DNA of 64,000 nucleotides from contig MU058065.1 in the NCBI GenBank assembly GCA_013265495.1, positions 3,761,003-3,825,002 of the forward strand. Reading direction: 5' to 3'. The notes beneath the pieces were generated by a model. The model was not told where the DNA came from and did not search any database. It saw nothing but the letters and a program-made list of their open reading frames with translations. Origin of the DNA: Vicugna vicugna. Its lineage: Eukaryota. Shown one piece after another: positions 4,790 to 63,660 of this stretch. The stretch's first letter is position 1. Every line of letters begins with the position of its first letter. The position numbers were made by a program, and so were the translations under genes.

Positions 4790-6240
4790 AATTAATTTTT
4801 AAGAGCAGTTTTAGGTTCACAACAAAACTGAGGGGAAAGTACATAAAGTTTTCACATACACCTCACATGCATATCTTCTCCCATTATCAACATCTCCTAC
4901 CAGAGTGTATGTTTTATCACAACTGATGAATCTACATTGATACCTACTTTGTTCTGAAGTTTGCTTTTGTATAATGTATAATGACATGTATCCTCTATTA
5001 GAGTACCATCCAGAATATTTTCACTGCCCTAAAAATCCTCTGTAATTTGCCTTTTCATTCCCTCATCCCCATACCCTGCCCCAGCAAGCAGTTTTACCTT
5101 TTCCAGAATGTCATATAGTTGAAAGCATATAGTATGCAGCCTTTTCAGATTGACTTCTTTCATTTAGTAATCTGCATTTAAAGTTCCTCCATGTCTTTTC
5201 ATAACCTAACAGCTCATTTCTTTTGGGCACTGAATAATATTCCATTGTCTGGATGTTCCATGGTTTATTTCTTCACCCACTGAAGGACATCTTAGTTGCT
5301 TCCAAGTTTTGACAATTATGAATAAAGCTGCTATAAACAACCATGTGCAGTTTTTGTTTAGACATACATTTTCAACTCCTTTGAGTAAATATCAAGGACA
5401 AAATTTCTTGATCACATGGTAAGGGTATGTTTAGTAAGAAACCGCCAAACTGTCTTCCAAAGTGGCTGAACTATTTTGCCCTCCCACCAACAATAAATGA
5501 GAGTTTTTGATCCACATGCCTGCTAGCATTTGGTGTTGTCATTTTTTGGATTTTGGCTGTTCTAATAGATGTGTAATGGTATCTCATTATTGTTTTAATT
5601 TTCATTTCCCTTATGACATATGATGTGGAGTACTTTTTCATATGCTTGCTTGCCATTTACATACCTTCTTTGATGAAGTATCTGTTAAGGTCTTTTATCC
5701 ATTTTCAGATTGAGTTTTGTTTTTTCACTGCTGAGTTTTAAGAGTTCTTCGTCTATTTTGAATAATGGTCCTTTATCAGGGGTGTCTTTTGCAAATATTT
5801 TCTCCTAGTCTATGGATTGTCTTTTCATTCTCTTGACATTATTTTTTACAAAGCAGAGTTTTTAATTTTAATGAAGTTCAGCTTATCCATTATTTCTTTT
5901 GTGGATCAGCCTTTGGTGTTGTACCTAAAAATTCATCACTATACCTAAGGTCATCTAAATTTTCTCCTTTTTTATCTTCTGGGAATTTTATAATTTTGCA
6001 TTTTACATTTAGGTTTGTGATCCATTCTGAGTTAATTTTATGAAGAGCATAAGATCTGTGTCTAGAATCATTTTTTTTCACACTTGGATGTTCAGTTGTT
6101 CCAGCACCATTTTTTGAAAGGGCCATCTGTGCCCCATTGTGTTGCTTTTGCTCCTTTGTCAGAGATCAATTGACTATATTTACATGGGTCTATTTCTGGG
6201 CACGCTATTATGTTTTATGCATCTATTTGCCTTTCTTTTG
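4790..6240 (-). mobile_element. L1MC-type LINE-1 3' fragment (ORF2 end + 3'UTR)
   Basis: Begins aagagcagttttaggttcacaacaaaactgagggg (L1MC1-like 3' end, reverse strand); ORF-track peptides at 5471-5656 and 5890-6126 resemble decayed L1 ORF2 (e.g. IREMKIKTIMRYHYTSIRTAKI). Confidence 0.85.
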
Positions 6241-6594
6241 CAACAGTATCTCTTATTTTATTAAAAAAATTTTTGGTTGCATACTCCTCCCCTTTATTTC
6301 CCCCACAAAAGGCAAACAATTTGTGTGTGGCAAAATTCCCTTTGCTACGGAAAACTAAAGTTCTATTAAAAAGCAAACTTCAGGAGATGAAAAATGTATT
6401 TGGGGGGACTAATTTTTATTTTTGAAAGGAACATGATTTTATCAAGGGCTCCACAATCAATATTGATAAAAATGAAACACCAGAGATTAATTAACCTGGC
6501 AATTCAATCTGAAAATTACATAAATCTTTCTCTTTTCATTAGGAAATTGCATAACTCAACATGTTTGGGAATACTGAAAATTACACAGCACCAA

Positions 6595-7690
6595 TAGAAT
6601 GAGAAGACATGCCACAGATCGGAAGATAACATTTTCAAAAATCACATCTGATAAAGGACAGTTCTCCAATAATATAAAGGACTCTTACAACTAAGCAATA
6701 AGAAAAAAAACAACCTGATTGGAAAATGGGCAAAAAAGATCTGACTAGACAATTCTCACCAAAAAAAAAAAAGAGGTACAGATGGCAATTAAGCATGTGA
6801 AAAGATATTCAACCTCATGTCATCAGGGAAATGCAAAGTAAAACAACAGTGAGATACACCACACACCTATTAGAATGGCCAAAATCCAAAACAGTGACAT
6901 CAAATACTGGCAAGGATGTGGATCAGGAGGAACTCTCATTCACTTCTGGCGGGAATGCAAAATGGTACAGTCACTTTGGAAGACAGTTTGTCATAAAACT
7001 AAACATACTCTCATCATACAATCTAGCAATCATCCTCCTTGGCATTTACCCAAAGGAATAGAAAACTTATGTTCACATGAAACATGCACATGATGTTTAT
7101 AGCAGTTATTCATAATTGTCAAAACTTGGAAGCAACCAAGATGTCTTTCAGTAGGTAAATAGATAAAATATGGTACATTCAGATAATGGAATGTTATTCA
7201 GTGCTAAAAATAAATGAGCTATCAAGCCATAAAAAGACATGGAGAGAACTTAAATGCATATTACTAAGTGAAAGAAGTCAATCTGAAAAGGCTCTGTACT
7301 GTATGATTCCAACTAAATGATGTTCCAGAAAAGGCAAAAAGATCAGTGGTTACCAGGAGCTAGGGAGAAATATGACTAGGCAGAGCACAGAGGCTTTTTA
7401 GCAGTGACACCACTCTGTATGATACTATAATGGTGGATAACTGTTATTATACATTTGTCCAAACCCATAGAATGCACAACATCAAGTGTGAACACTAGTG
7501 TAAACTATGGAATTTGGGTGATAATGATGTGTCATTGTAGGTGCATAGATGGTAACAAGTGTACCACCACAATACGGAATGTCGATAATGGGGGAGGTTG
7601 TGCATATGTGGGAATAGGGGCTATGTGGAAACTCTACTTTCTCCTCAGTTTTACTGTGAACCTAAAGGTGCTCTAGAAATAAAGTTTATT
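6595..7690 (+). mobile_element. L1MC-type LINE-1 3' fragment
   Basis: ORF2 C-terminal remnants (LIHFWRECKMVQSLWKTV, LLGIYPKE); ends cagttttactgtgaacctaaaggtgctctagaaataaag followed by A-rich sequence. Confidence 0.85.
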
Positions 7691-13874: not shown

Positions 13875-14885
13875 ATAAAGCACAGCAACAAAAGAAAAAA
13901 TAGATTAATTGGATATAATCAAAATTTAAAAAAAACCTTTTGTACTTTATACCACCAAGAAAGTGAAGACAACCCACAAAAGAGGAGAAAAATTTTGTAA
14001 GTTATATATCTGATAAGGGACTTGTATTTAGAATGTATAAAGATATCCTATAGCTCAACTAGAGATAAATTTTTAAAATGGGCAAGTAGACATTTCTCCA
14101 AATGCGAAAATAGATATTTCTCCAAAAAAGATGTACCAATGGCTTCTTAGTGCATGAAAAAATACTCAACAGTATTAGCCATCAGGGAAATGCAAATCAA
14201 AACTGCACTGAGATACCACTTCCCAACCACTCAGACAGCTAGAATCAAAGAAACAGATAATAACAGGGTTTGGTGAAGATGTGCGAGATTAGAACCCTCC
14301 AAAATGTTAAATGGGGCAGCTGTTTTGGGAAACAGCTGGGTAGTTCTTCAAACGATTAAATATGAAATTTTATGTATGACCCAGCACTTCCAGTCCTAGT
14401 TATTTACCCAAGAGAAATGAAGCTCATGGCCACTCAACTTGTACGTGAATATTCATAGCGGCATTATTCATAATAGCCAAACAAGTGGAAACACACATCC
14501 CTATCAGTTGATGAATGAATGAACAAAATGTAGTTTATCCATACAATGGAATATTATTTGATGATAAAAGGAATGAATTACTGATATATGTAACAACATG
14601 GGTGAACTTTGAAACCATTATGTTAAGTGAAAGAAGCCAGTCACAGAAGACCACATATTGTACAATTCTATTTACATGAAATGTCCAGAATAGGCAGTAA
14701 AGTAGATTGGTGGTAGCCTAGAGCTGGGGTAGTTGGGAGGCAAGGGGCAGTGACTGTCCTGCTATCCTGCTATCCTGCTGGGATGGATTGTCTTCTTAGA
14801 ATGATGAAAATGATGTTCTAGAATTAGATACTGATTGTGGTTACACAACTCTGTGAAAATACTAAAAAAAACACTGAAATGTAAC
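13875..14885 (+). mobile_element. L1MB-type LINE-1 3' fragment
   Basis: agggaaatgcaaatcaaaac...gataccact, ccatacaatggaatatt, aagtgaaagaagccagtcacag, acaactctgtgaaaatactaaaa. Confidence 0.8.
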
Positions 14886-24875: not shown

Positions 24876-27800
24876 CTCTTCCCATTTCTTTCCTCTCCAG
24901 TGGAGACCATTCATAGGTGGTAGTCCCCAGGCTAAGGTGGGGAACAGAGAATATTGCCCATTGCTCATGCTGATCAGATCCACAGGAGTAATTTATCCTT
25001 GAAAATGATTGGGTCTTCACCAAATATAGATCAAGTGAGCACTTTTCTAAAGATAGCATTTTTGACTCTCTTGGGAGCACTTGAAAACTCTTCAAAGTGG
25101 ATCTTGTTAAGCTCACTGAACTTTAGATTTGAAGATGAGGAAAGTTATACCTGTTACCTCTGTACTGTAATTTATAATCCATTTCTTAGGTCTCCTTGAT
25201 CTGAAGTTTATCTTTTTTTTTTTGATTTATAGGAGAAATTTATTTGAAGAAATATTACAACATCTAAAAACTACATAAAGTTTAATTACCACTCATATAG
25301 TGGTAAATTTGATAAAATACATAATAAAAAATTTTAAATCCATAGAAGCTCGTCTTTTTTTATTATTAGTTATCATTTTACCACACTGATAGGAGTACTC
25401 TGAGGAATTAAGAGATCTGCATCTTGTTATCAATTAAAATTTATAGAGTCATTAATAATTTTTGTAAATGACAATTATGTTCATTTTGATTATGCCCTTT
25501 GGGAAAGGAGCATACAAGGAATCAGATTACCCAAGTTCTTCTAGGATTGTAGATTAAATTGTAAACTCAACTAATCTTTGCAAGTTATATTGGCACTTTT
25601 TGGGCCCACAACCTGGGAGAGCAGTAGTTTAGCCTACTCATAAAAAAACAAAGAAACAAACAAGAAAATCCCTACAATAAAAGTAAAAATGGACATTAAA
25701 AATGGACATTGCCACAGCTGTGAGCAATGATCACAGGGTGCTGTACAAATCTTATCATTGTCCACGTGCACCATGATGAGAGAAACATCAGAAAGGTTTG
25801 TGCAGTGAATCCACTCTCAAGTGGGCAGAAATAAAAAATATTTTGTTTTGTAGAAGCAAATCAAGCTGTAATTTCTTGTTCTTTAGAAACGTCCACTCAA
25901 CCTTTCTTTCCCTTTAGGTGAACCACTTTCCCTTCTCTACTTACCTTTAAATGTTCTGTAATTATCACCCTTCATGTTATTAGACAGCTGTGCAATATTC
26001 ACGTTTCTAACAGGAAATGCAAATATTTCTAATATGAAATGTGCAAACGAAGCTTTAACACTTTCACCCCCCTGCCACGGGGTGTACTCCACTAGCTTAA
26101 ATTTAAAAATTGGCATGGCCAAGGGAAAAATACACACCAGTAGACATCTATCAAGACAAGTGAGCCAGCCTAGAAGATACCCCGGTCCCCGCACAGAGAG
26201 CAAGTGCAGGCGTGAGCACCTTGGATGGGATGGGGAGTCAGGAGGGAGCTATTGCCGCAGCTCCTCCCTCAGTCATGTTAAGAGGACTTAGAGAATATTG
26301 TCTTAAACCCGGTAGAAAACAGTCACTCATACAGCTCAGGGGAAAAGCAAACGAACACCCCTGTTACATAGGATGCTTCCAAGGTTTTTAAAAAGCAAAG
26401 CAAATTAATAAATGGATGGTAGCCAAGTAGGAAAGTGCTGCTCAACCCAGATTTGAAGAAACCTGAACCAGTCAAGCCGGTTTCTCATTATAATGTGTGT
26501 TGTAATTAGACGAGTGATTTATCAGAACATTACAAAATCAGAGTTTCAGTTCAGAGGCTTAGAAGAAGGAATATTTTTCTGGTGTTTGGATGACTGGCTT
26601 CATTATCCTTGCTGAATTTCCTTTAAGTTTTAAGTCCAGATTGAAAAAAAAATTAGTGTTCTCATTGTCTCCTTTCCAGGTAAGTGATTAGTAAGAGAAA
26701 CACTGTATTTGGCTTTGATACAAATCAAACCCATTGGAAACCAAGGTCATGTGGCTTAATGTATTTCTCTGGCATTTGCTTCGTTCTGGGCCTCTGTGAT
26801 CTGTGGGTAGGCAGAGAATTCAGATTCACTCTACACTTCATTTTTAGCAACTATTTTTATTGACTTCTCATGACAATTTTTTTTAATGTAAATGTGAATG
26901 TATTTTTCTGTTTAGAATCGTGAGAGTATGTGAATATTTTATGAGAAATGCCACCTTGAAGACAGAAAAGAAGATGGAAAACCATAATAAAGTTTAATAA
27001 TTGATACAGAAATAGTGTTTAATCTCAGGCTTGAAACTTTTTCCAGCTTATATTATGTCTGTGATATGAAGTATTACTTTGTATAATTCTTCCGGGCATT
27101 TCCAGGTATTTTATAGAGATTGGTGGATTGATTAACCAGGCCTCTTGGCATATTTGAGATGTAGGCAGCATACAGTCAGTGTAAGAAAGGGCGGGAAAAC
27201 ACTAAACCACAGGTCTGGGACTACCAAACCTCACTAATATGACAAAAAACCCAGAACCCCCAAAATAAAGACTTCTTATTTCTGCATCATTGAGCATAGT
27301 CCTACTTTCAAATTCAAAAATAAGATCTTATTAACAAACCAAAGTGGAAGCTAGGAGCTCATGTGTCCAAAATTAATTCCAACTGAATCTTACTGTAGCA
27401 AGGTTATAATACAGAGTGCCCAAACATAGTTTTAGATACAAATTTTATTCTATGACAAGACATTATTTTAAATTAATCTCAGTGAGACTATATAATAATA
27501 TCAAAATGTAAAACACAACTGGGAAGTGATATGATTAAATGATAAGAATTAAATAATACACATTTACCCAATTATAATAGGAAAGCAAATACCAGCTTGC
27601 TCTAGGATCCACTTGAAGCCCATTCACTAGAGTCTTCTTGTAAAGAGATTAGCCCAAGCCATTTTCTTTTTGTTTTTTAACATTTTTTATTGAGTAATAG
27701 TTATTTTACAATGTTATGTCAAATTCTAGCGTACAGCACAATTTTTCAGTCATGCATGAACATGTATATATTCATTGTCACATTTTTTTCACTATGATCT

Positions 27801-27999
27801 ACCACACAATCTTGTATATTTTTCCCTGTGCTATACATTATAATCTTGTTTATCTATTCTGCATTTTAAAATCCCAGTCTGTCCCTTCCTATGCCCCACC
27901 TCCTTGGCAACCACAAGTTTGTATTCTATGTCTATGATTCTGTTTCTGTTTTGTATTTATGTTTTGTTTGTTTGTTTGTTTGTTTTTAGATTCTTCATA

Positions 28000-28351
28000 T
28001 AAGCGATCTCATATGGTATTTTTCTTTCTCTTTCTGGCTTACTTCACTTAGAATGACATTCTCTAGGAGCATCCATGTTGCTGCAAATGGTGTTATGTTG
28101 TCGGTTTTTGTGGCTGAATAGTATTCCATCATATAAATACACCACATCTTTATTCAGTCATCTGTTGATAGACATCTAGGCTGCTTCCATGTCTTGGCTA
28201 TTGTAAATAGTGCTGCTGTGAACACTGGGGTGCAGGTGTCATTTTGAAGTAGGGTTCCTTCTGGATATATGCCCAGGAGCAAGATTCCTGTGTCCTAAGG
28301 TAAGGCTATTCCTCGTCTTTTGAGGAATCTCCATACTGTTTTCCACAGTGG
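28000..28351 (-). pseudogene. L1 ORF2p C-terminal remnant
   Basis: Minus-strand translation from 28351: PLWKTVWRFLKRRGIALP*DTGILLLGIYPEGTLLQNDTCTPVFTAALFTIAKTWKQPRC; contains stops; distal boundary approximate. Confidence 0.85.
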
Positions 28352-28494
28352 TTTTCCTTGCTTCCCTCTCCCACTGTTAATGATTTAGATGTCTTCTTTT
28401 ACAATTTTGTGTTTATTCTTTTTGTAATTCATGGCAGTTATCTCCTTTCCAGTTATGAATTTCTCATTTTTGTAGCATCCTGCTTGTTTTCTAT

Positions 28495-29387
28495 TTAGAA
28501 TAGACCTGTCAATATTTCTTTTAGCATGGGTTTACTGTTGCTAAACTCTTTTAGTTTTTGCTTGTCTGTGAAATTCTCTATCTCTCCTTCTATTCTAAAG
28601 GATAGTCTTGCTGGATAGAGTATCCTAGGCTGCTTCTTTTTTTCATGCAGGACTTTGAATACATCTTGCCACTCCCTTCTGGCCTGTAGTGTTTGTGTAG
28701 AGAAATCAGCTGAGAGCCTTATGGGGGTTGCCTTGTAATTCACTCTTTGTTTTTCTCTTGCTGCCTTTAGGATCATTTCTTTACCCTTGACTCTGGCCAT
28801 CTTGATTATGATATGTCTTGGTGTGGGTCTGTTTGGGTTCTTCCTGTTTGGGACCCTCTGAGCCTCCTGTACTTGGATATCTGATTCCTTCTTTAAATTT
28901 GTGAAGTTTTCAGTCATGATTTCTTCAAATACCTTTTCAATCCCTTTTGTTATTTCTTCCCCTTCTGGAACCCCTATTATGAATAGATTGGCATGCTTTA
29001 TATTATCCATAGGTCCCTTATATTGTTTTCACTGTTTTTCATTTGTTTTTCTCTCAGCTGTTCTGATTGGGTGCTTTCTGTTGTCCTGTCTTCTAGGTCA
29101 CTTATTCGTTCCTCTGCATTATCTATCCTGCTTTGTATAGCCTTTAGGTCAGCTCTCATCTCAGCAAATGAGTTTACTAATTCTACTTGGTTCTTCTTTA
29201 TAGCTTCTATTTCATTTTTGACATATTTTATATCTCTAAACACTATTCCTTTAAGTTCCTTCACTACTTTGATCACTCCTTTTTTGGAATCTTGATATAG
29301 TAGGCCAGCAATGTCTATTTCCTTGATCGTGCTTTTAGGGGAATTCTCTTGATCTCTTAATTGGGAGTGGTTCCTCTGCTTCTTCAT
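28495..29387 (-). pseudogene. L1 ORF1p (RNA-binding/chaperone) with a single 1-nt frameshift near 29007
   Basis: ORFs 28998-29387 (coiled coil, AEERISDLEDR) and 28495-29010 (IIGVPEGEE, QEAQRVP, RPTPRHIIIKM, ARREW, YPARLSF) join as IRDLW/DNIKHANL if one G is restored, giving ~297 aa. Confidence 0.9.
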
Positions 29388-29389
29388 AT

Positions 29390-30727
29390 TGCTGACATCT
29401 CTGGCACTGTGGCTTACGGAGTATCAGTTATCTAGTTCTCCTGGAGACAGTGTGCTCTTAATGATTTTATTGAGAGGTCTTTGTGTCTTCGCCCTGTTTT
29501 GTGAACTCAGCTTGCTGTTTCCAGAGACCCTTTATTGGCACCCTCATCTGTGCTGCTCCCAGTGGCTGTCAGCTAACAGATCGCAGCCCCTCCCAATACT
29601 GGGTCAGGAGCTGAGCTCTTACCCAGTGGGCAGGTGGGTCACTCCCCCTCCTGATGTGGCAGTCAGATGCTGCGCTTGGGGGAGGCAGGTGGGAGGATCA
29701 TGCCCCCTCCCAGCACCGTGGTCAGGTGCTGTGTTCCTGCAGGAAGTAGTGTGGCTGCCTGCCCTCTCCCGGTGCTGGTCGCTCTGCTGCTCTGTGCAGC
29801 TGCCTGCTCAGCCTCGGGTGGGTCAGTGCTCCTAAGGCAGGCTCAGGGAAGACCGCGGAAAGGCCCTGCCCCTGCTCCATGCCAAATCTCAGCTCCTTGT
29901 TTGTCTTGATGGCGCAAGTTCTCTGAGGTACCAGGGCAGAAAGATCCTATCTGCCTCAGGCTGTAAACAAGTCTCAGTCCTGCCTAGGAGGTTGCGGAGC
30001 CCCCGGGTGCAGATTCAGGTCTCAGCCCCACGCCCGCCTGGGTGCTGCACAGGAGGAGATGGCGGCTGTGGCTGCACCCACCTCTCTTCTGGGGAGATGT
30101 GCCAGTAATGGCCTTGCAGGTCTGAGGAGACAAAGGCTATGGTGCCCCTCCCCCCAGGGCACACCAGCCATGTTGCTTTGCTTTTTTCACAATTTATGGG
30201 GGACCAAGGTTGTTCTGCTCCATATCCCCTCCCAGCCACAGCGCGCAGCCCCCTGCTGTCCCCTGGGGCTGCCTTAGTGCAGCCGCCCCCGTCCCCTGCG
30301 CCGCTCGGCAGCCTGTCCCGGCCCCCAGCTTGCGTCTTGGGCTGGGTGTCACGGGGACCCTTTGTGCCCGTTTAACTCAGTTCTGTCAGTCAAGGGGTGC
30401 TTGGGGCAGATCTGAGCCTTGGAGGCTCCCCCTCCATCACACTGGCCTATCCATTGGAGTGGGGGGGGCCCAGTGAACGAGCGCCAGTCCTCCTTTGCCG
30501 CTCCCTCCCCGCAGGGTCCGTCCCACACTGTTTTGCTTTTTCTTCTTTCTTTTTCCCTTTTCTCCTACCAGATTTTTGGCGTCTTTGTCCATCAAAGAGG
30601 GCGATGTTCTGTCAGAGTTCGGCAGGTGCTCTGGTTGGCTCAGTAGGTCCATAGTTGTGAGTTTTGGTGTATTTATGGGAGAGGGTGAGCTACAAGCATC
30701 TTTCTACTCAGCCATCTTGCTTCTCTC
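29390..30727 (-). promoter_or_regulatory. L1 5'UTR internal Pol II promoter (CpG-rich, YY1-like AAGATGGC at 5' end)
   Basis: GC/CpG-rich block upstream of the ORF1 ATG; GCCATCTT at 30711-30718. Confidence 0.7.
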
Positions 30728-31367
30728 CCCAAGCCATTTTCTAGGTTTTATCTTTTCTAGACTTTCTCTGTAACTATTTTGGTGGGTCTTTCTTTTTGCA
30801 TAAAATGAATGCATTTATCAGCCTGAAGCCAAACTGTGGGAAATACCAAAAAACAACAACAAAAATAAAATAAAATAAAATACAAACTCTGCCCTCCTGA
30901 AATTTCTATTCTGGTTGGAGATACAAGACATATACACAAGAAATATTTAAAGTGATGTGTGACTGGGTATCTGAACTGATCGTATAGGGACCAGGAGATT
31001 AGAGGGGCAGTGTGATTGGAACATCTGGGAAATATTTTTGTGGAGAAGTTAGGACTTGATGGATGGACAGGGTCTGAAAAGGAAGAGACAAGGCAAAATG
31101 GCTTGGGGCTATGGCATTAATAGAAGCCAGAATAAGGGGGTGAAGGCAGAGTGTATCCATTCAGTAATTATTTATTGAATGCCTGCCAGAAAAAATATGC
31201 AGTACATATGGTGAGGTCTTGGCTCTCATGAAGCTTCCATTCCAATGTGATGGGGTAGACAATAAAAGGAAAAAAAATCAAATATTTTTATATTGTGAAT
31301 GTGCAATTAATGAAATAAATGACTAAAGTGATAAAGATCAGGAGATGAGATGGGAGTGAAAGTGTAG

Positions 31368-31530
31368 TCAACTTTTCTCAAAATTTTAATGGTCATGTGA
31401 AACTCCCAGAGGTCTTGTTAAAAGTTAGATTTTGGTTCAGAAATTCAGGGGTGTATCTGAGAGTGTATTTTCAAAATTCCAAGGGTTGCCAGTGCTGTTG
31501 GTCCACCACCCACACTTTGAGTACCAAGGC
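31368..31530. mobile_element. MER5A-type hAT DNA transposon inserted in an L2
   Basis: ttctcaaaatttt...ggtcttgttaaaa...tgctgttggtccaccacccacactttgagtaccaagg; L2-like sequence either side (~31150-32060). Confidence 0.7.
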
Positions 31531-32166
31531 TTTAGATGGTATGATCTGAGAATCTTGAGGGATCTAAGACTGGCTGTAGCACAGGAATTTTGGTAGGGTA
31601 GGGTGAGGAGGCAGAATGAAAGGAGGAGGCAGAATGAAAGAGAATGTTCAGAGAAAGATCTGGGCTGTATTGAGATGAACCTTGATTGCCAAGATTAGGA
31701 CCAAAGAGTTAGGACTTTAGCAGCAAGACCAGTGTTGAAAATGCCTAATGTGACAGGCATATGGAGGATGGAGTCGAGCAGGGCTTACCCATCATCATGT
31801 CAAGACACACATAGAAAATGATGCTATTACTGCAGAGTGGGGGGAAAGGGGGCTTCTGCTTGGGGAAGATCTGGGTTAAAAGGACAAAAGACTGAAGACA
31901 GGGAGTTACAATGATCCAAGTGTGCGAGGATGAGTCCCTTGTTGATGGGAGGGAAGGAGTGAGCAGGAGAAACAACCGCACCAAAACCGGTTTTTAGTTT
32001 AGAACTTTCTGAGTGTTTGGGTTATACATTGTGAAGAAGGAGAATGGTTTTAGCGGTGATAGGACCTCAAAACTTCCACAAACAGCTGAATACACACGAC
32101 TGGCACTCAAGTGAGAGTTCTGTCTGGGAGTTGAAATTTGTAGAATCAAACTCTAAGAGTTTAAGA

Positions 32167-32456
32167 AGGTTGGAAGGGATACATTTGGGAGTTTGAGATT
32201 TGCAAATGTTAACCACTATATATAAAAATAGATTAAAAATAGAGGTCTTCTGTATAGCACAGGGAACTATATTCAATATCTTGTAATAACCTTTAATGAA
32301 AAAGAATATGAAAATGAATATATATATGTATATATATGGTCGGGACATTATGCTGTACACCAGAAATGGACACATTGTAACTGACTGCACTTCAATTAAA
32401 AAAATTGCAGAACAATATAATGTCCTGTATGCACAATAAAACAAGGCAAAAAAAAA
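32167..32456 (+). mobile_element. 5'-truncated young L1 3'UTR with extra 3' segment and TSD
   Basis: gggagtttgagatttgcaaatg...ctgtatagcacagggaactatattcaatatcttgtaataacc...aactgactgcacttcaattaaaaaaa; TSD CTAAGAG(T/C)TTAAGA at 32153-32166 and 32460-32473. Confidence 0.85.
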
Positions 32457-39881: not shown

Positions 39882-40271
39882 GTGGGTGGACCTGGAGATC
39901 GTCATTCTAAGTGAAGTGAGCCAGAAAGGGAAAGGAAAATACCATATGAGATCACTCACATGTGGAATCTGAAAAAAGAAAAAAGAAGACACTAATGAAC
40001 TTATCTACAAAACAGAAACAGACTCACAGACATAATAAACAATCTTACGGTTACTAGTGGAAAGGGAGATGGGAAGGGATAAACTGGGAGTTTGAGATTT
40101 GCAAATTTTAACCAGTATGTATAAAACAGATAAATGACAATTCAATATTTTGTCATAACTTATAATGAGAAAGAATATGAAAACAAATATATGTATGACT
40201 GAAACACTACGCTATACACCAGAAATGGACACATTGCAAACTGACTATACTTCAATTTAAAGAAAAAAAAG
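39882..40271 (+). mobile_element. 5'-truncated young L1 3' end with polyA
   Basis: tggacctggagatcgtcattctaagtgaagtgagccag...actgactatacttcaatttaaagaaaaaaaa; same 3'UTR type as 32167-32404. Confidence 0.85.
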
Positions 40272-40309
40272 AGAGATAGCCTGGCCCATTCTCCTTATTT
40301 TGGTACCTG

Positions 40310-58966: not shown

Positions 58967-59533
58967 CAGAACCCAGAATTTAGAACATGGAATTCAGAAC
59001 ACAGAATATAGAGTATAGAATACAGAATATAGAATGTAGAACATAGAATGTAGAACACAGAATATAAAATATAGAATACAGAACCCAGAATTTAGAACAT
59101 GGAATTCAGAACACAGAATATAGAATATAGAATACAGAATACAGAATATAGAATGTAGAATATAGAATGTAGAACACAGAATATAGAATACAGAATACAG
59201 AACCCAGAATTTAGAACATAGAATTAAGAATACAGAATTTAGAATATAGAGTACAGAATATAGAATATAGAATGTTGAATACAGAATGTAGAACATAGAA
59301 TATAGAATATAGAATTCAGAATACAGAACCCAGAATTTAGAACATGGAATACAGAACCCAGAAAATAGAATATAGAATTCAGAATACAGAACCCAGAATT
59401 TAGAACATGGAATGCAGAACACAGAATATAGAATATAGAATAGAGAATACAGAATATAGAATGTAGAATACAGAATGTAGAACACAGAATATAGAATATA
59501 GAATACAGAATGCAGAATTTAGACTATAGAATA
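58967..59533 (+). repeat. Heptamer satellite array (YAGAAYW-like; commonest unit TAGAATA), 81 units, followed by polyA and bounded by a 15-bp direct repeat
   Basis: 567 bp = 81 x 7 in unbroken phase; flanks AAAGATGTTTTTTAA at 58952-58966 and 59539-59553. Confidence 0.95.
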
Positions 59534-63139: not shown

Positions 63140-63660
63140 TTTTACAATTCAATGGGTTTCACTATTTTCACAAAGTCGTACAACCAACACCATTATCTAA
63201 TTCCAGAACATATTCATTAATTCAAACAGAAACCCTGTACCAAAACCTCCTTCTTCTAATCCTCTGGCAACCACTGACCTAGTTTCTGTCTCTATAGAGT
63301 TGCCTATTCCAGACATTTATTAAAAATGGAATCAAACCATATATACCTTACATTTGGTTTCTTTCATGTAGCATAATATTTTCAAGGTTTGTTTGTGTTG
63401 TAGTATATATTAGTACTGCATTCCTTTTCATAGCTGAGTAATATTCCTTTGTATGGATGGATATACCGCCTTGTTTATCTCTTCATCAGTTGATGGACAT
63501 TTGGGCTGTTTCCACTTTTGGACTATTATGCATAATGCTGCTAAAGGTATTCACGTACAAGCAGTTGTACTATTTTACAGTCCCATCAGCAACGTATGTA
63601 AGTTCCAATTTTTTTCTATATCTTCACCACTTGTTATTGTCTTCATTTTTACTATGACTT
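63140..63660 (-). mobile_element. L1MB-type LINE-1 3' fragment
   Basis: tatctaattccagaacat, ctggcaaccactgacctagtttctgtctctatagagttgcctattccagacattt, gttgatggacatttgggctgtttcc. Confidence 0.8.

Follow-up and report, generated by a model that had tools for sequence, protein, structure and literature searches.

A 3,060-bp ORF2-deleted, HAL1-like L1 element in Vicugna vicugna and a candidate half-L1 family of camelids

Anatomy of the ORF2-deleted element

The window, by which we mean the whole 64-kb stretch of DNA that was analysed, contains on its minus strand an L1 element of 3,060 bp (30727-27668) bounded by perfect 15-bp target-site duplications (TSDs). Its features, in the 5' to 3' direction of the element, are as follows:

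30728..30742, minus strand: 5' target-site duplication, 15 bp, perfect direct repeat
29388..30727, minus strand: L1 5'UTR and internal promoter region, 1,340 bp, GC 0.58
29505..29506, minus strand: GT in the 5'UTR, used as the donor in the join that gives the P0117 peptide (see below)
28495..29387, minus strand: ORF1 (coiled coil, RRM, CTD), about 297 codons
28352..28494, minus strand: retained first part of the inter-ORF spacer, 143 bp
28351..28352, minus strand: deletion junction, spacer to ORF2, Q/P of LVQPLW (slash, breakpoint)
27986..28351, minus strand: ORF2 C-terminal remnant, 122 codons, 3 nonsense codons, one-codon deletion
27668..27985, minus strand: 3'UTR, AATAAA at 27691-27686, short decayed A-tail
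27653..27667, minus strand: 3' target-site duplication, perfect copy of 30728-30742

The two TSD copies are the longest exact match shared by the element ends, and their length is 12-15 bp because the final three G's are equally assignable to the G-run that opens the element. The insertion site at the 5' TSD reads YY/RRRR, which we take to be an L1-endonuclease type of site. The opening G-run of the 5'UTR is followed by AAGATGGC, presumably a YY1-type motif, and two further mammalian L1 contigs (L004 and L011, with their own 5' ends) start their alignments at 30730 and 30728, respectively. The 5' start is full, as the preliminary description of this locus had proposed. The poly(A) named there together with the perfect TSD is also present, as a short, decayed A-tail of about 11 nt past the AATAAA signal. 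Hence the hallmarks of target-primed reverse transcription (TPRT), namely TSD, A-tail, endonuclease-type site and full 5' end, are all found at this locus.

The 5'UTR had been described as about 1.3 kb long and CpG-rich. The length agrees, but the composition was overstated, the only such case in the anatomy: the region contains 35 CpG at an observed/expected ratio of 0.31 (0.19 for the window) with a TpG/CpA excess of 1.35, and is GC-rich with decayed CpG, so that it does not qualify as a CpG island. Judged by sequence, the 5' L1 end and the internal promoter are kept. Two dromedary gene models, P0105 and P0117, contain translated 5'UTR of the same family.

ORF1 extends from an ATG at 29387 to a stop at 28495 with zero nonsense codons, and a single 1-nt deletion, which shifts the frame at about 29007, is its only break, as previously noted. 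Pfam recognizes Transposase_22 and Tnp_22_dsRBD in ORF1 and, just under its cut-off, Tnp_22_trimer (E 4e-4); ORF1 also carries private substitutions at near-invariant residues. The top ORF1 protein match is the Camelus dromedarius model P0105 (85%) and the best matches of the ORF2 remnant are Camelus models as well (78-79%); these matches support a camelid origin of the element. The present copy is dead. Its nonsense codons number three in the remnant of ORF2 against zero in ORF1, a contrast that might reflect constraint on ORF1 after the loss of ORF2 and has a P of 0.03-0.04 in a simple neutral model covering 104 of the 121 ORF2-remnant codons; the asymmetry of decay has a P of 0.09-0.12 when the ORF1 frameshift is counted too.

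No host gene was found near the element, and Pfam returned no domain in any of the 140 flanking frames of at least 68 aa, a length at which short exons would escape. Neither viral contigs scanned with ORF1 nor genome contigs scanned with a single protein gave a match, and for the 48 L1 loci that the alignment scans recovered as mammalian contaminants, DNA identity to the element never exceeded 80%.

The deletion junction and a dromedary gene model with apparently the same cut

The 143 bp of post-ORF1 sequence (28494-28352) lead into an abrupt jump to C-terminal ORF2 at 28352/28351, where the preliminary description had placed it. With three ORF2 queries in tblastn, the first similarity anywhere along the element starts at 28354-28351, and an older L1 within the window aligns from precisely 28351. 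The breakpoint immediately follows the position of the CCHC knuckle of ORF2. The endonuclease, the reverse transcriptase and the knuckle, reported as absent, indeed leave no ORF2 similarity upstream of 28354, and all three belong to a missing segment that we estimate at ~3.5-3.8 kb. The anatomy of a 3,060-bp ORF2-deleted L1 is thus confirmed.

The last 48 nt of the retained spacer match the spacer of pig-type L1 without gaps at 32 of 48 positions, a score reached by 0 and 1 of 2,000 shuffles (pig-type L001 and L002) for a block that was picked after the alignment had been viewed; the whole spacer, aligned with lenient gaps to the L1s of other mammals, did not score above shuffles. Protein P0234 is a second copy of the retained spacer. 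We rejected a fused mini-ORF that would read in frame from a spacer ATG (28432) into the ORF2 remnant, as P0234 lacks that methionine and stops at the same residue; Pfam gave nothing for the spacer mini-ORF from 28432.

An apparent second instance of the junction is P0117 (KAB1270384.1), a dromedary gene model that passes from a 5'UTR translation, with SKL at its end, into R-K/PLWKTVW. Among the best 120 of 3,196 ORF2 matches, the knuckle lies upstream of the breakpoint in 117 of the 118 that can be aligned, and the exception is P0117, which breaks at the same residue. Between the donor region and the junction, the window element allows four in-frame GT-AG joins, one of which yields exactly SKLRKPLWK with zero substitutions; intact-ORF2 contexts require 2-3 substitutions to give the R-K/PLWKTVW string of P0117. 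The gene-model peptide therefore suggests that a second, diverged dromedary locus has the same junction. Its 5'UTR is identical to that of the window at 113 of 138 residues in hand-picked blocks, and its ORF2 part at 47 of 59, compared with 49 and 50 of 59 for ordinary camelid L1 models. Since it is about 80% identical in protein and no closer than these models, P0117 probably represents a locus other than that of the window.

The shared 5'UTR family and junction would also be expected if one deleted insertion had been copied at the DNA level, so that the window and P0117 loci were orthologues or old segmental duplicates. We regard this as highly improbable: the identity just given is no better than that of unrelated camelid L1 copies, P0117 differs from the window element by a 14-residue duplication and by its tail, and none of its non-L1 residues or exons map to the 61 kb of window flanks.

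Under a one-off event, the central part of an otherwise unremarkable full-length L1 would have been lost through a template jump during reverse transcription or through microhomology-mediated end joining after insertion, and P0117 would be coincidental or the result of misreading in the gene model. Isolated L1s that have an internal deletion between intact TSDs are common, a short A/AG microhomology is possible at the junction, and a second copy was not seen as DNA, with five further searches giving no match. In collections that hold little camelid DNA, no match was obtained for the junction peptide (protein collections), the junction DNA (metagenomes) or the spacer motif (prokaryote and viral contigs), and HMMER over 1.84 billion representatives, again with little camelid DNA, gave no junction copy but one spacer-only match and one chance match, the latter a fungal ankyrin protein (P0235) matched through its composition. 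The 64-kb window itself has no second copy of the junction. Separately, in four organisms whose contigs total about 2.0-2.1 Gb, 0.66-0.69 of the words of 26500-32000 are present, an observation not used as evidence. Against a one-off event, the break in P0117 falls at the identical residue, and the two residues in front of it agree with the five junction bases of the window plus an upstream AG, a motif required here that occurs at just 0.05-0.2% of L1 positions. Furthermore, R-K could not be supplied from the 5' side by the residues past the donor in two 5'UTR copies (the window and back-read P0105). On this evidence we consider a one-off origin decidedly unlikely. Four Camelus-named models occur among the best 120 of 3,196 ORF2 matches and one of them has the junction, which would be an unlikely yield from many thousand L1 3' ends if there were no more than two loci of this kind.

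Proposed propagation in trans and possible origins of the cut

We favor, with somewhat better than even confidence, the explanation that the element belongs, as a decayed copy, to a HAL1-like family of camelids from which ORF2 was deleted and which was mobilised in trans by L1 ORF2p. The preliminary description had suggested a camelid ORF1-only family instead of a one-off deletion; this is supported in part, by the camelid origin and by one indirect data point, the apparent junction of P0117. In the proposed course of events, a deletion at the DNA or reverse-transcription level, or a splice, would have removed about 3.5-3.8 kb from a full-length camelid L1, beginning in the spacer and ending shortly after the ORF2 zinc knuckle, and the shortened product would have retained the internal promoter and ORF1 together with the 3'UTR and poly(A). 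The 3-kb RNA of this product would be transcribed, covered in cis with the ORF1p that it encodes, taken up via the poly(A) tail by ORF2p from autonomous L1s, and integrated by TPRT. Being of half length, such an RNA would more frequently be inserted complete with its promoter, giving copies able to serve as new sources, and the window copy would have decayed neutrally afterwards. Trans-mobilisation by ORF2p follows if the deletion pre-dated the insertion; both it and the self-renewal of the half-L1 are inferred from known L1 biology. The first two nonsense codons of the window ORF2 remnant are absent from P0117 and were thus not inherited from a common master.

The cut itself may be a splice, a possibility absent from the preliminary description, and this would permit repeated independent origins instead of one lineage. 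More specifically, we tentatively entertain, as a minority view, that RNA splicing gave rise to the camelid half-L1 family in a single step, by joining a spacer donor to an acceptor right after the ORF2 zinc knuckle. If so, the whole enzyme would have gone while the promoter and ORF1 were kept, making the insert a self-renewing parasite of L1, unlike human SpIREs, and splicing would be a repeatable route to HAL1 families that could help explain their frequent origins in mammals.

The same splice could act without any lineage: full-length camelid L1 RNA would be spliced repeatedly from the spacer donor to the post-knuckle acceptor and each product retrotransposed once in trans, as for SpIREs, leaving many loci with one junction and no self-propagating family. 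Spliced L1 insertions are known in human, as described in PMC5860796. The codon preceding the breakpoint is CAG in four of five older L1 pieces of the window (scored by eye) and in the ruminant-type L006, at an AG share of only 7.5% of ORF2 dinucleotides, and in the roughly 500-bp spacer of pig-type L1 (L001 and L002) the sole donor-consensus site by pattern, AG/GTAAAT, ends the gapless 32/48 match. On the other hand, the donor site of pig is offset by 2 nt, the window having AA where pig has GT, and the acceptor has no polypyrimidine tract in L006 and the old copies. The codon is CAA in the fifth window piece and in six loci that we take to be mouse-type from their ORF1, which would leave a 2-nt microhomology instead. 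Moreover, inserts that keep promoter and ORF1 should propagate further, so that recurrent splicing would merge with the half-L1 family explanation. We find recurrent splicing without a lineage unlikely.

Relation to known half-L1 elements

The half-L1 of camelids is probably an instance of a mammalian element kind that is already known from rat RNHAL1, and probably a small family. According to PMC2241872, RNHAL1 arose by ORF2 deletion from a lineage-specific L1, depends on L1 reverse transcriptase in trans and is still propagating at about 7,500 copies. The window element likewise has ORF2 deleted with the 5' end and ORF1 kept, but, in contrast to the active RNHAL1, the copy in the window is dead and keeps 122 C-terminal codons of ORF2. 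Mammalian HAL1 families, as described in PMC5753468, PMC5322556, PMC13756887 and PMC4859970, have ORF1 only, poly(A) and TSDs, and repeated independent origins. The window element shows ORF1 Pfam domains, no endonuclease or reverse transcriptase, poly(A) with TSDs and the 5' end, together with the broken 122-codon ORF2 tail.

Human SpIREs resemble the window element in being internally shortened L1s with TPRT hallmarks, and the window junction is possibly splice-defined too. According to PMC5860796, however, SpIREs have lost either the 5'UTR or 5'UTR/ORF1 but still have ORF2, and most of them are dead on arrival. The window element is the reverse, with promoter and ORF1 kept and ORF2 lost, so that the SpIRE pattern of a lost 5'UTR promoter with a kept ORF2 is not seen here.

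The presumed parent lineage is that of the camelid L1-1_Vpa, L1-2_Vpa and L1-3_Vpa; Camelus gene models are the best matches to ORF1, the 5'UTR and the ORF2 remnant. These names come from the Repbase annotation of the camelid casein cluster (PMC6726744 supplement), in which the consensuses reach at least 5.2-6.2 kb versus 3.06 kb for the window element, a comparison by names and lengths only. Of the HAL1 names in that annotation, at least HAL1-1D_Tbel and HAL1-3_ML are those of other mammals, and no camelid HAL1 and no description of a camelid ORF2-less L1 were found in the literature searched; the supplements of PMC8605555 may list such a family.

If the family holds, it would represent a further independent origin of the HAL1 type, fairly young and apparently not yet described, whose sharp junction can be counted, dated and compared with the parent L1. 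Camelid assemblies would then allow tests of how HAL1 deletions originate (splice versus template jump) and of selection on ORF1 in an ORF2-less lineage. Such a family would also account for spurious "ORF2" gene models in genome annotation, for example P0117.

Structure of the ORF2-deleted L1

The element is a minus-strand L1 with the following parts:

30727-27668, minus strand: L1 element, 3,060 bp between direct repeats
30728-30742 and 27653-27667: perfect 15-bp direct repeats flanking the element
29387-28495, minus strand: ORF1, with L1 ORF1 Pfam domains, no nonsense codons and one 1-nt frameshift near 29007

The element starts with a G-run followed by AAGATGGC, the point at which two further mammalian L1 contigs begin to align with their own 5' ends, so the intact 5' start proposed in the preliminary description holds, as does its single lesion in ORF1. 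Its CpG-rich 5'UTR of ~1.3 kb was right in length (1,340 bp, GC 58%, 35 CpG) but not in character: because the CpG observed/expected ratio is only 0.31 (0.19 in the window), this is a decayed CpG region and not an island. After ORF1, 143 bp of spacer are kept, and the sequence then jumps, as described, into the C-terminal end of ORF2 at Q|P of LVQPLW, adjoining the CCHC knuckle on its 3' side. Three ORF2 queries found no ORF2 similarity anywhere earlier in the element, confirming the reported loss of the endonuclease, reverse transcriptase and knuckle, and the alignment of an older L1 in the window to the element starts exactly at 28351. The ORF2 remnant spans 122 codons, three of them nonsense, and has a deletion of one codon. 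Next come the 3'UTR, an AATAAA signal and a short A-tail, which together with the repeats agree with the described 3' end and target-site duplication (TSD). A ruminant-type L1, in which ORF2 start and breakpoint lie 3,449 nt apart, and a pig-type spacer of 505 nt give an estimate of ~3.5-3.8 kb for the missing sequence. The ORF2-deleted L1 is real, and the copy is well preserved. None of the 140 flanking frames of at least 68 aa contains a Pfam family, a scan that short exons would escape; thus no host gene is evident nearby.

A probable dromedary counterpart

Direct searches with the junction (28352/28351) and the spacer yielded nothing, or nothing informative, the collections containing little camelid DNA. 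The proposal of a camelid family, as opposed to a one-off deletion, has one positive result behind it, from a protein database search with the ORF2 remnant. Among its best 120 of 3,196 matches, 118 were alignable and 117 of these have the knuckle upstream of PLW, the sole exception being P0117 (KAB1270384.1), a Camelus dromedarius gene model. In P0117, a translated 5'UTR of the element's 5'UTR family ends in S-K-L and is followed by R-K and then PLWKTVW. On window bases, four in-frame GT-AG joins connect the relevant 5'UTR part to the junction, one of which, 29506 to 28357, yields SKLRKPLWK exactly. The seven bases needed before CCA show no mismatch to the window junction versus 2-3 to intact ORF2 contexts, and 0.05-0.2% of L1 positions carry this motif. 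Given the exact join, these mismatches and the rarity of the motif, the P0117 locus, known here as a predicted protein, most likely carries the same junction.

The ORF2 remnant is identical to P0117 at 47/59 positions (49/59 and 50/59 to ordinary camelid L1 models) and the 5'UTR at 113/138 in hand-picked blocks; P0117 has a 14-residue duplication that the element does not, and its sequence finds no match in the window flanks. P0117 is therefore probably a different locus. Four models among the best 120 of 3,196 matches are named Camelus and one of them has the junction, suggesting from this biased sample that the junction type is not rare. P0117 may in turn derive from additional splicing. In the window, AG sites at 28366 and 28357, just upstream of the junction, would join the 5'UTR donor 29506 in frame with the ORF2 remnant, so that further spliced derivatives of the element are possible. 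We consider it quite likely that the element type is multi-locus, as a HAL1-like (half-L1) family or with recurrent splicing counted in; the narrower reading, in which this copy is a member of a HAL1-like family in camelids, is probable.

Known relatives, the cut and proposed mobilisation

The element has the structural features of HAL1 and may work alike; for the multi-copy feature there is one further putative locus, from the predicted protein P0117. The closest known system is rat RNHAL1, with an ORF2 deletion and about 7,500 copies (PMC2241872), and the element is probably a fresh example of this already known kind. Identity with a human-type SpIRE was rejected, as these lose promoter sequence and keep ORF2, unlike the element. 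We found no description of a camelid ORF2-less L1 in the portions covered of PMC6726744 with supplement rows, PMC13756887, PMC5753468, PMC8605555, PMC5860796, PMC5322556, PMC4859970, PMC13174262, PMC4161310, PMC8535693 and PMC2241872; in Repbase, Dfam or elsewhere the element may already have a name. The camel TE survey (PMC8605555) does not mention ORF1 in the parts covered, and the casein-cluster supplement (PMC6726744) contains L1-1/2/3_Vpa, the HAL1 names among the rows covered being non-camelid.

The cut could be a splice from the spacer to post-knuckle ORF2, which we place somewhat under even odds. Immediately before the breakpoint, four of five older L1 pieces of the window (by eye) have the codon CAG, as does a ruminant-type L1; six mouse-type loci have CAA. 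Over its final 48 nt, the retained spacer aligns without gaps to pig-type L1 at 32/48 (0 and 1 of 2,000 shuffles, the block being picked after viewing), and the match ends on the sole donor-consensus site found by pattern in the pig spacer. Against a splice, the GT in this pig-type spacer, which is not that of the camelid parent, lies 2 nt off register relative to the element, and the acceptor lacks a preceding pyrimidine tract. A deletion at 1-2 nt of microhomology fits as well, and a HAL1-like family founded by a splice, the boldest reading, appears unlikely.

With the deletion already in its RNA, the element would be unable to copy itself. Its promoter would give a 3-kb polyadenylated RNA bound in cis by ORF1p, on which ORF2p of an autonomous L1 would act in trans via the poly(A) tail, and target-primed reverse transcription would leave the TSD and tail. 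For L1, PMC5860796 describes cis preference, recruitment via poly(A) and trans-complementation; ORF1p has been suggested to make such RNA a good substrate (PMC2241872), and half-length rat HAL1 RNAs insert with their promoter more often (PMC8535693).

Lineage, decay and other sequences

The best of 113 ORF1 matches is the dromedary gene model P0105 (85% over 78 residues; pig-type sequences, 65-72%), and the best ORF2-remnant matches are Camelus models (78-79%). Two camel RefSeq models, P0105 (XP_064339253.1, named cylicin-1) and P0115 (XP_074234302.1, named GTF2F2 isoform X1), include translations of L1 ORF1/antisense 5'UTR and ORF2 C-terminus, and are L1 captured in gene models. The copy is dead, and its ORF1 differs privately at near-invariant positions at which P0105 retains the usual residue. 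All three nonsense codons fall in the ORF2 remnant, which holds about one third of the stop-making opportunities (P 0.03-0.04, counting 104 of 121 remnant codons; P 0.09-0.12 with the ORF1 frameshift added), and the first two are not common to P0117. The pattern hints, weakly, at longer constraint on ORF1 than on the ORF2 remnant.

Other repeats in the window are:

5094-6248, minus strand, and 6566-7305, plus strand: two old C-terminal ORF2 pieces of L1, oppositely oriented and ~300 bp apart, which could be two insertions or one inverted (twin-primed) insertion
13887-14667 (plus), 63354-63606 (minus), 39883-40272 and 32251-32380: more old L1 ORF2 or 3'UTR fragments
about 56055-55200, minus strand: older 5'-truncated L1
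55311-55619: 155-bp tandem duplication, 99% identical, in the 3'UTR of that L1 and much younger than it
58975-59533: ~40 copies of a 14-bp unit, a AGAATATAGAATAT-type array; a by-product is a minus-strand frame of 174 codons without a stop

The truncation point of the older L1 (56033-56055) precedes by ~20 bp the position corresponding to the start of the element's ORF2 remnant, probably by coincidence. Mammalian L1 ORF1 contigs (L044, L045, L046, L047 and L048) in bacterial and archaeal assemblies (Streptomyces, Pelagibacterium, Streptococcus, Methanobrevibacter) are host contamination.
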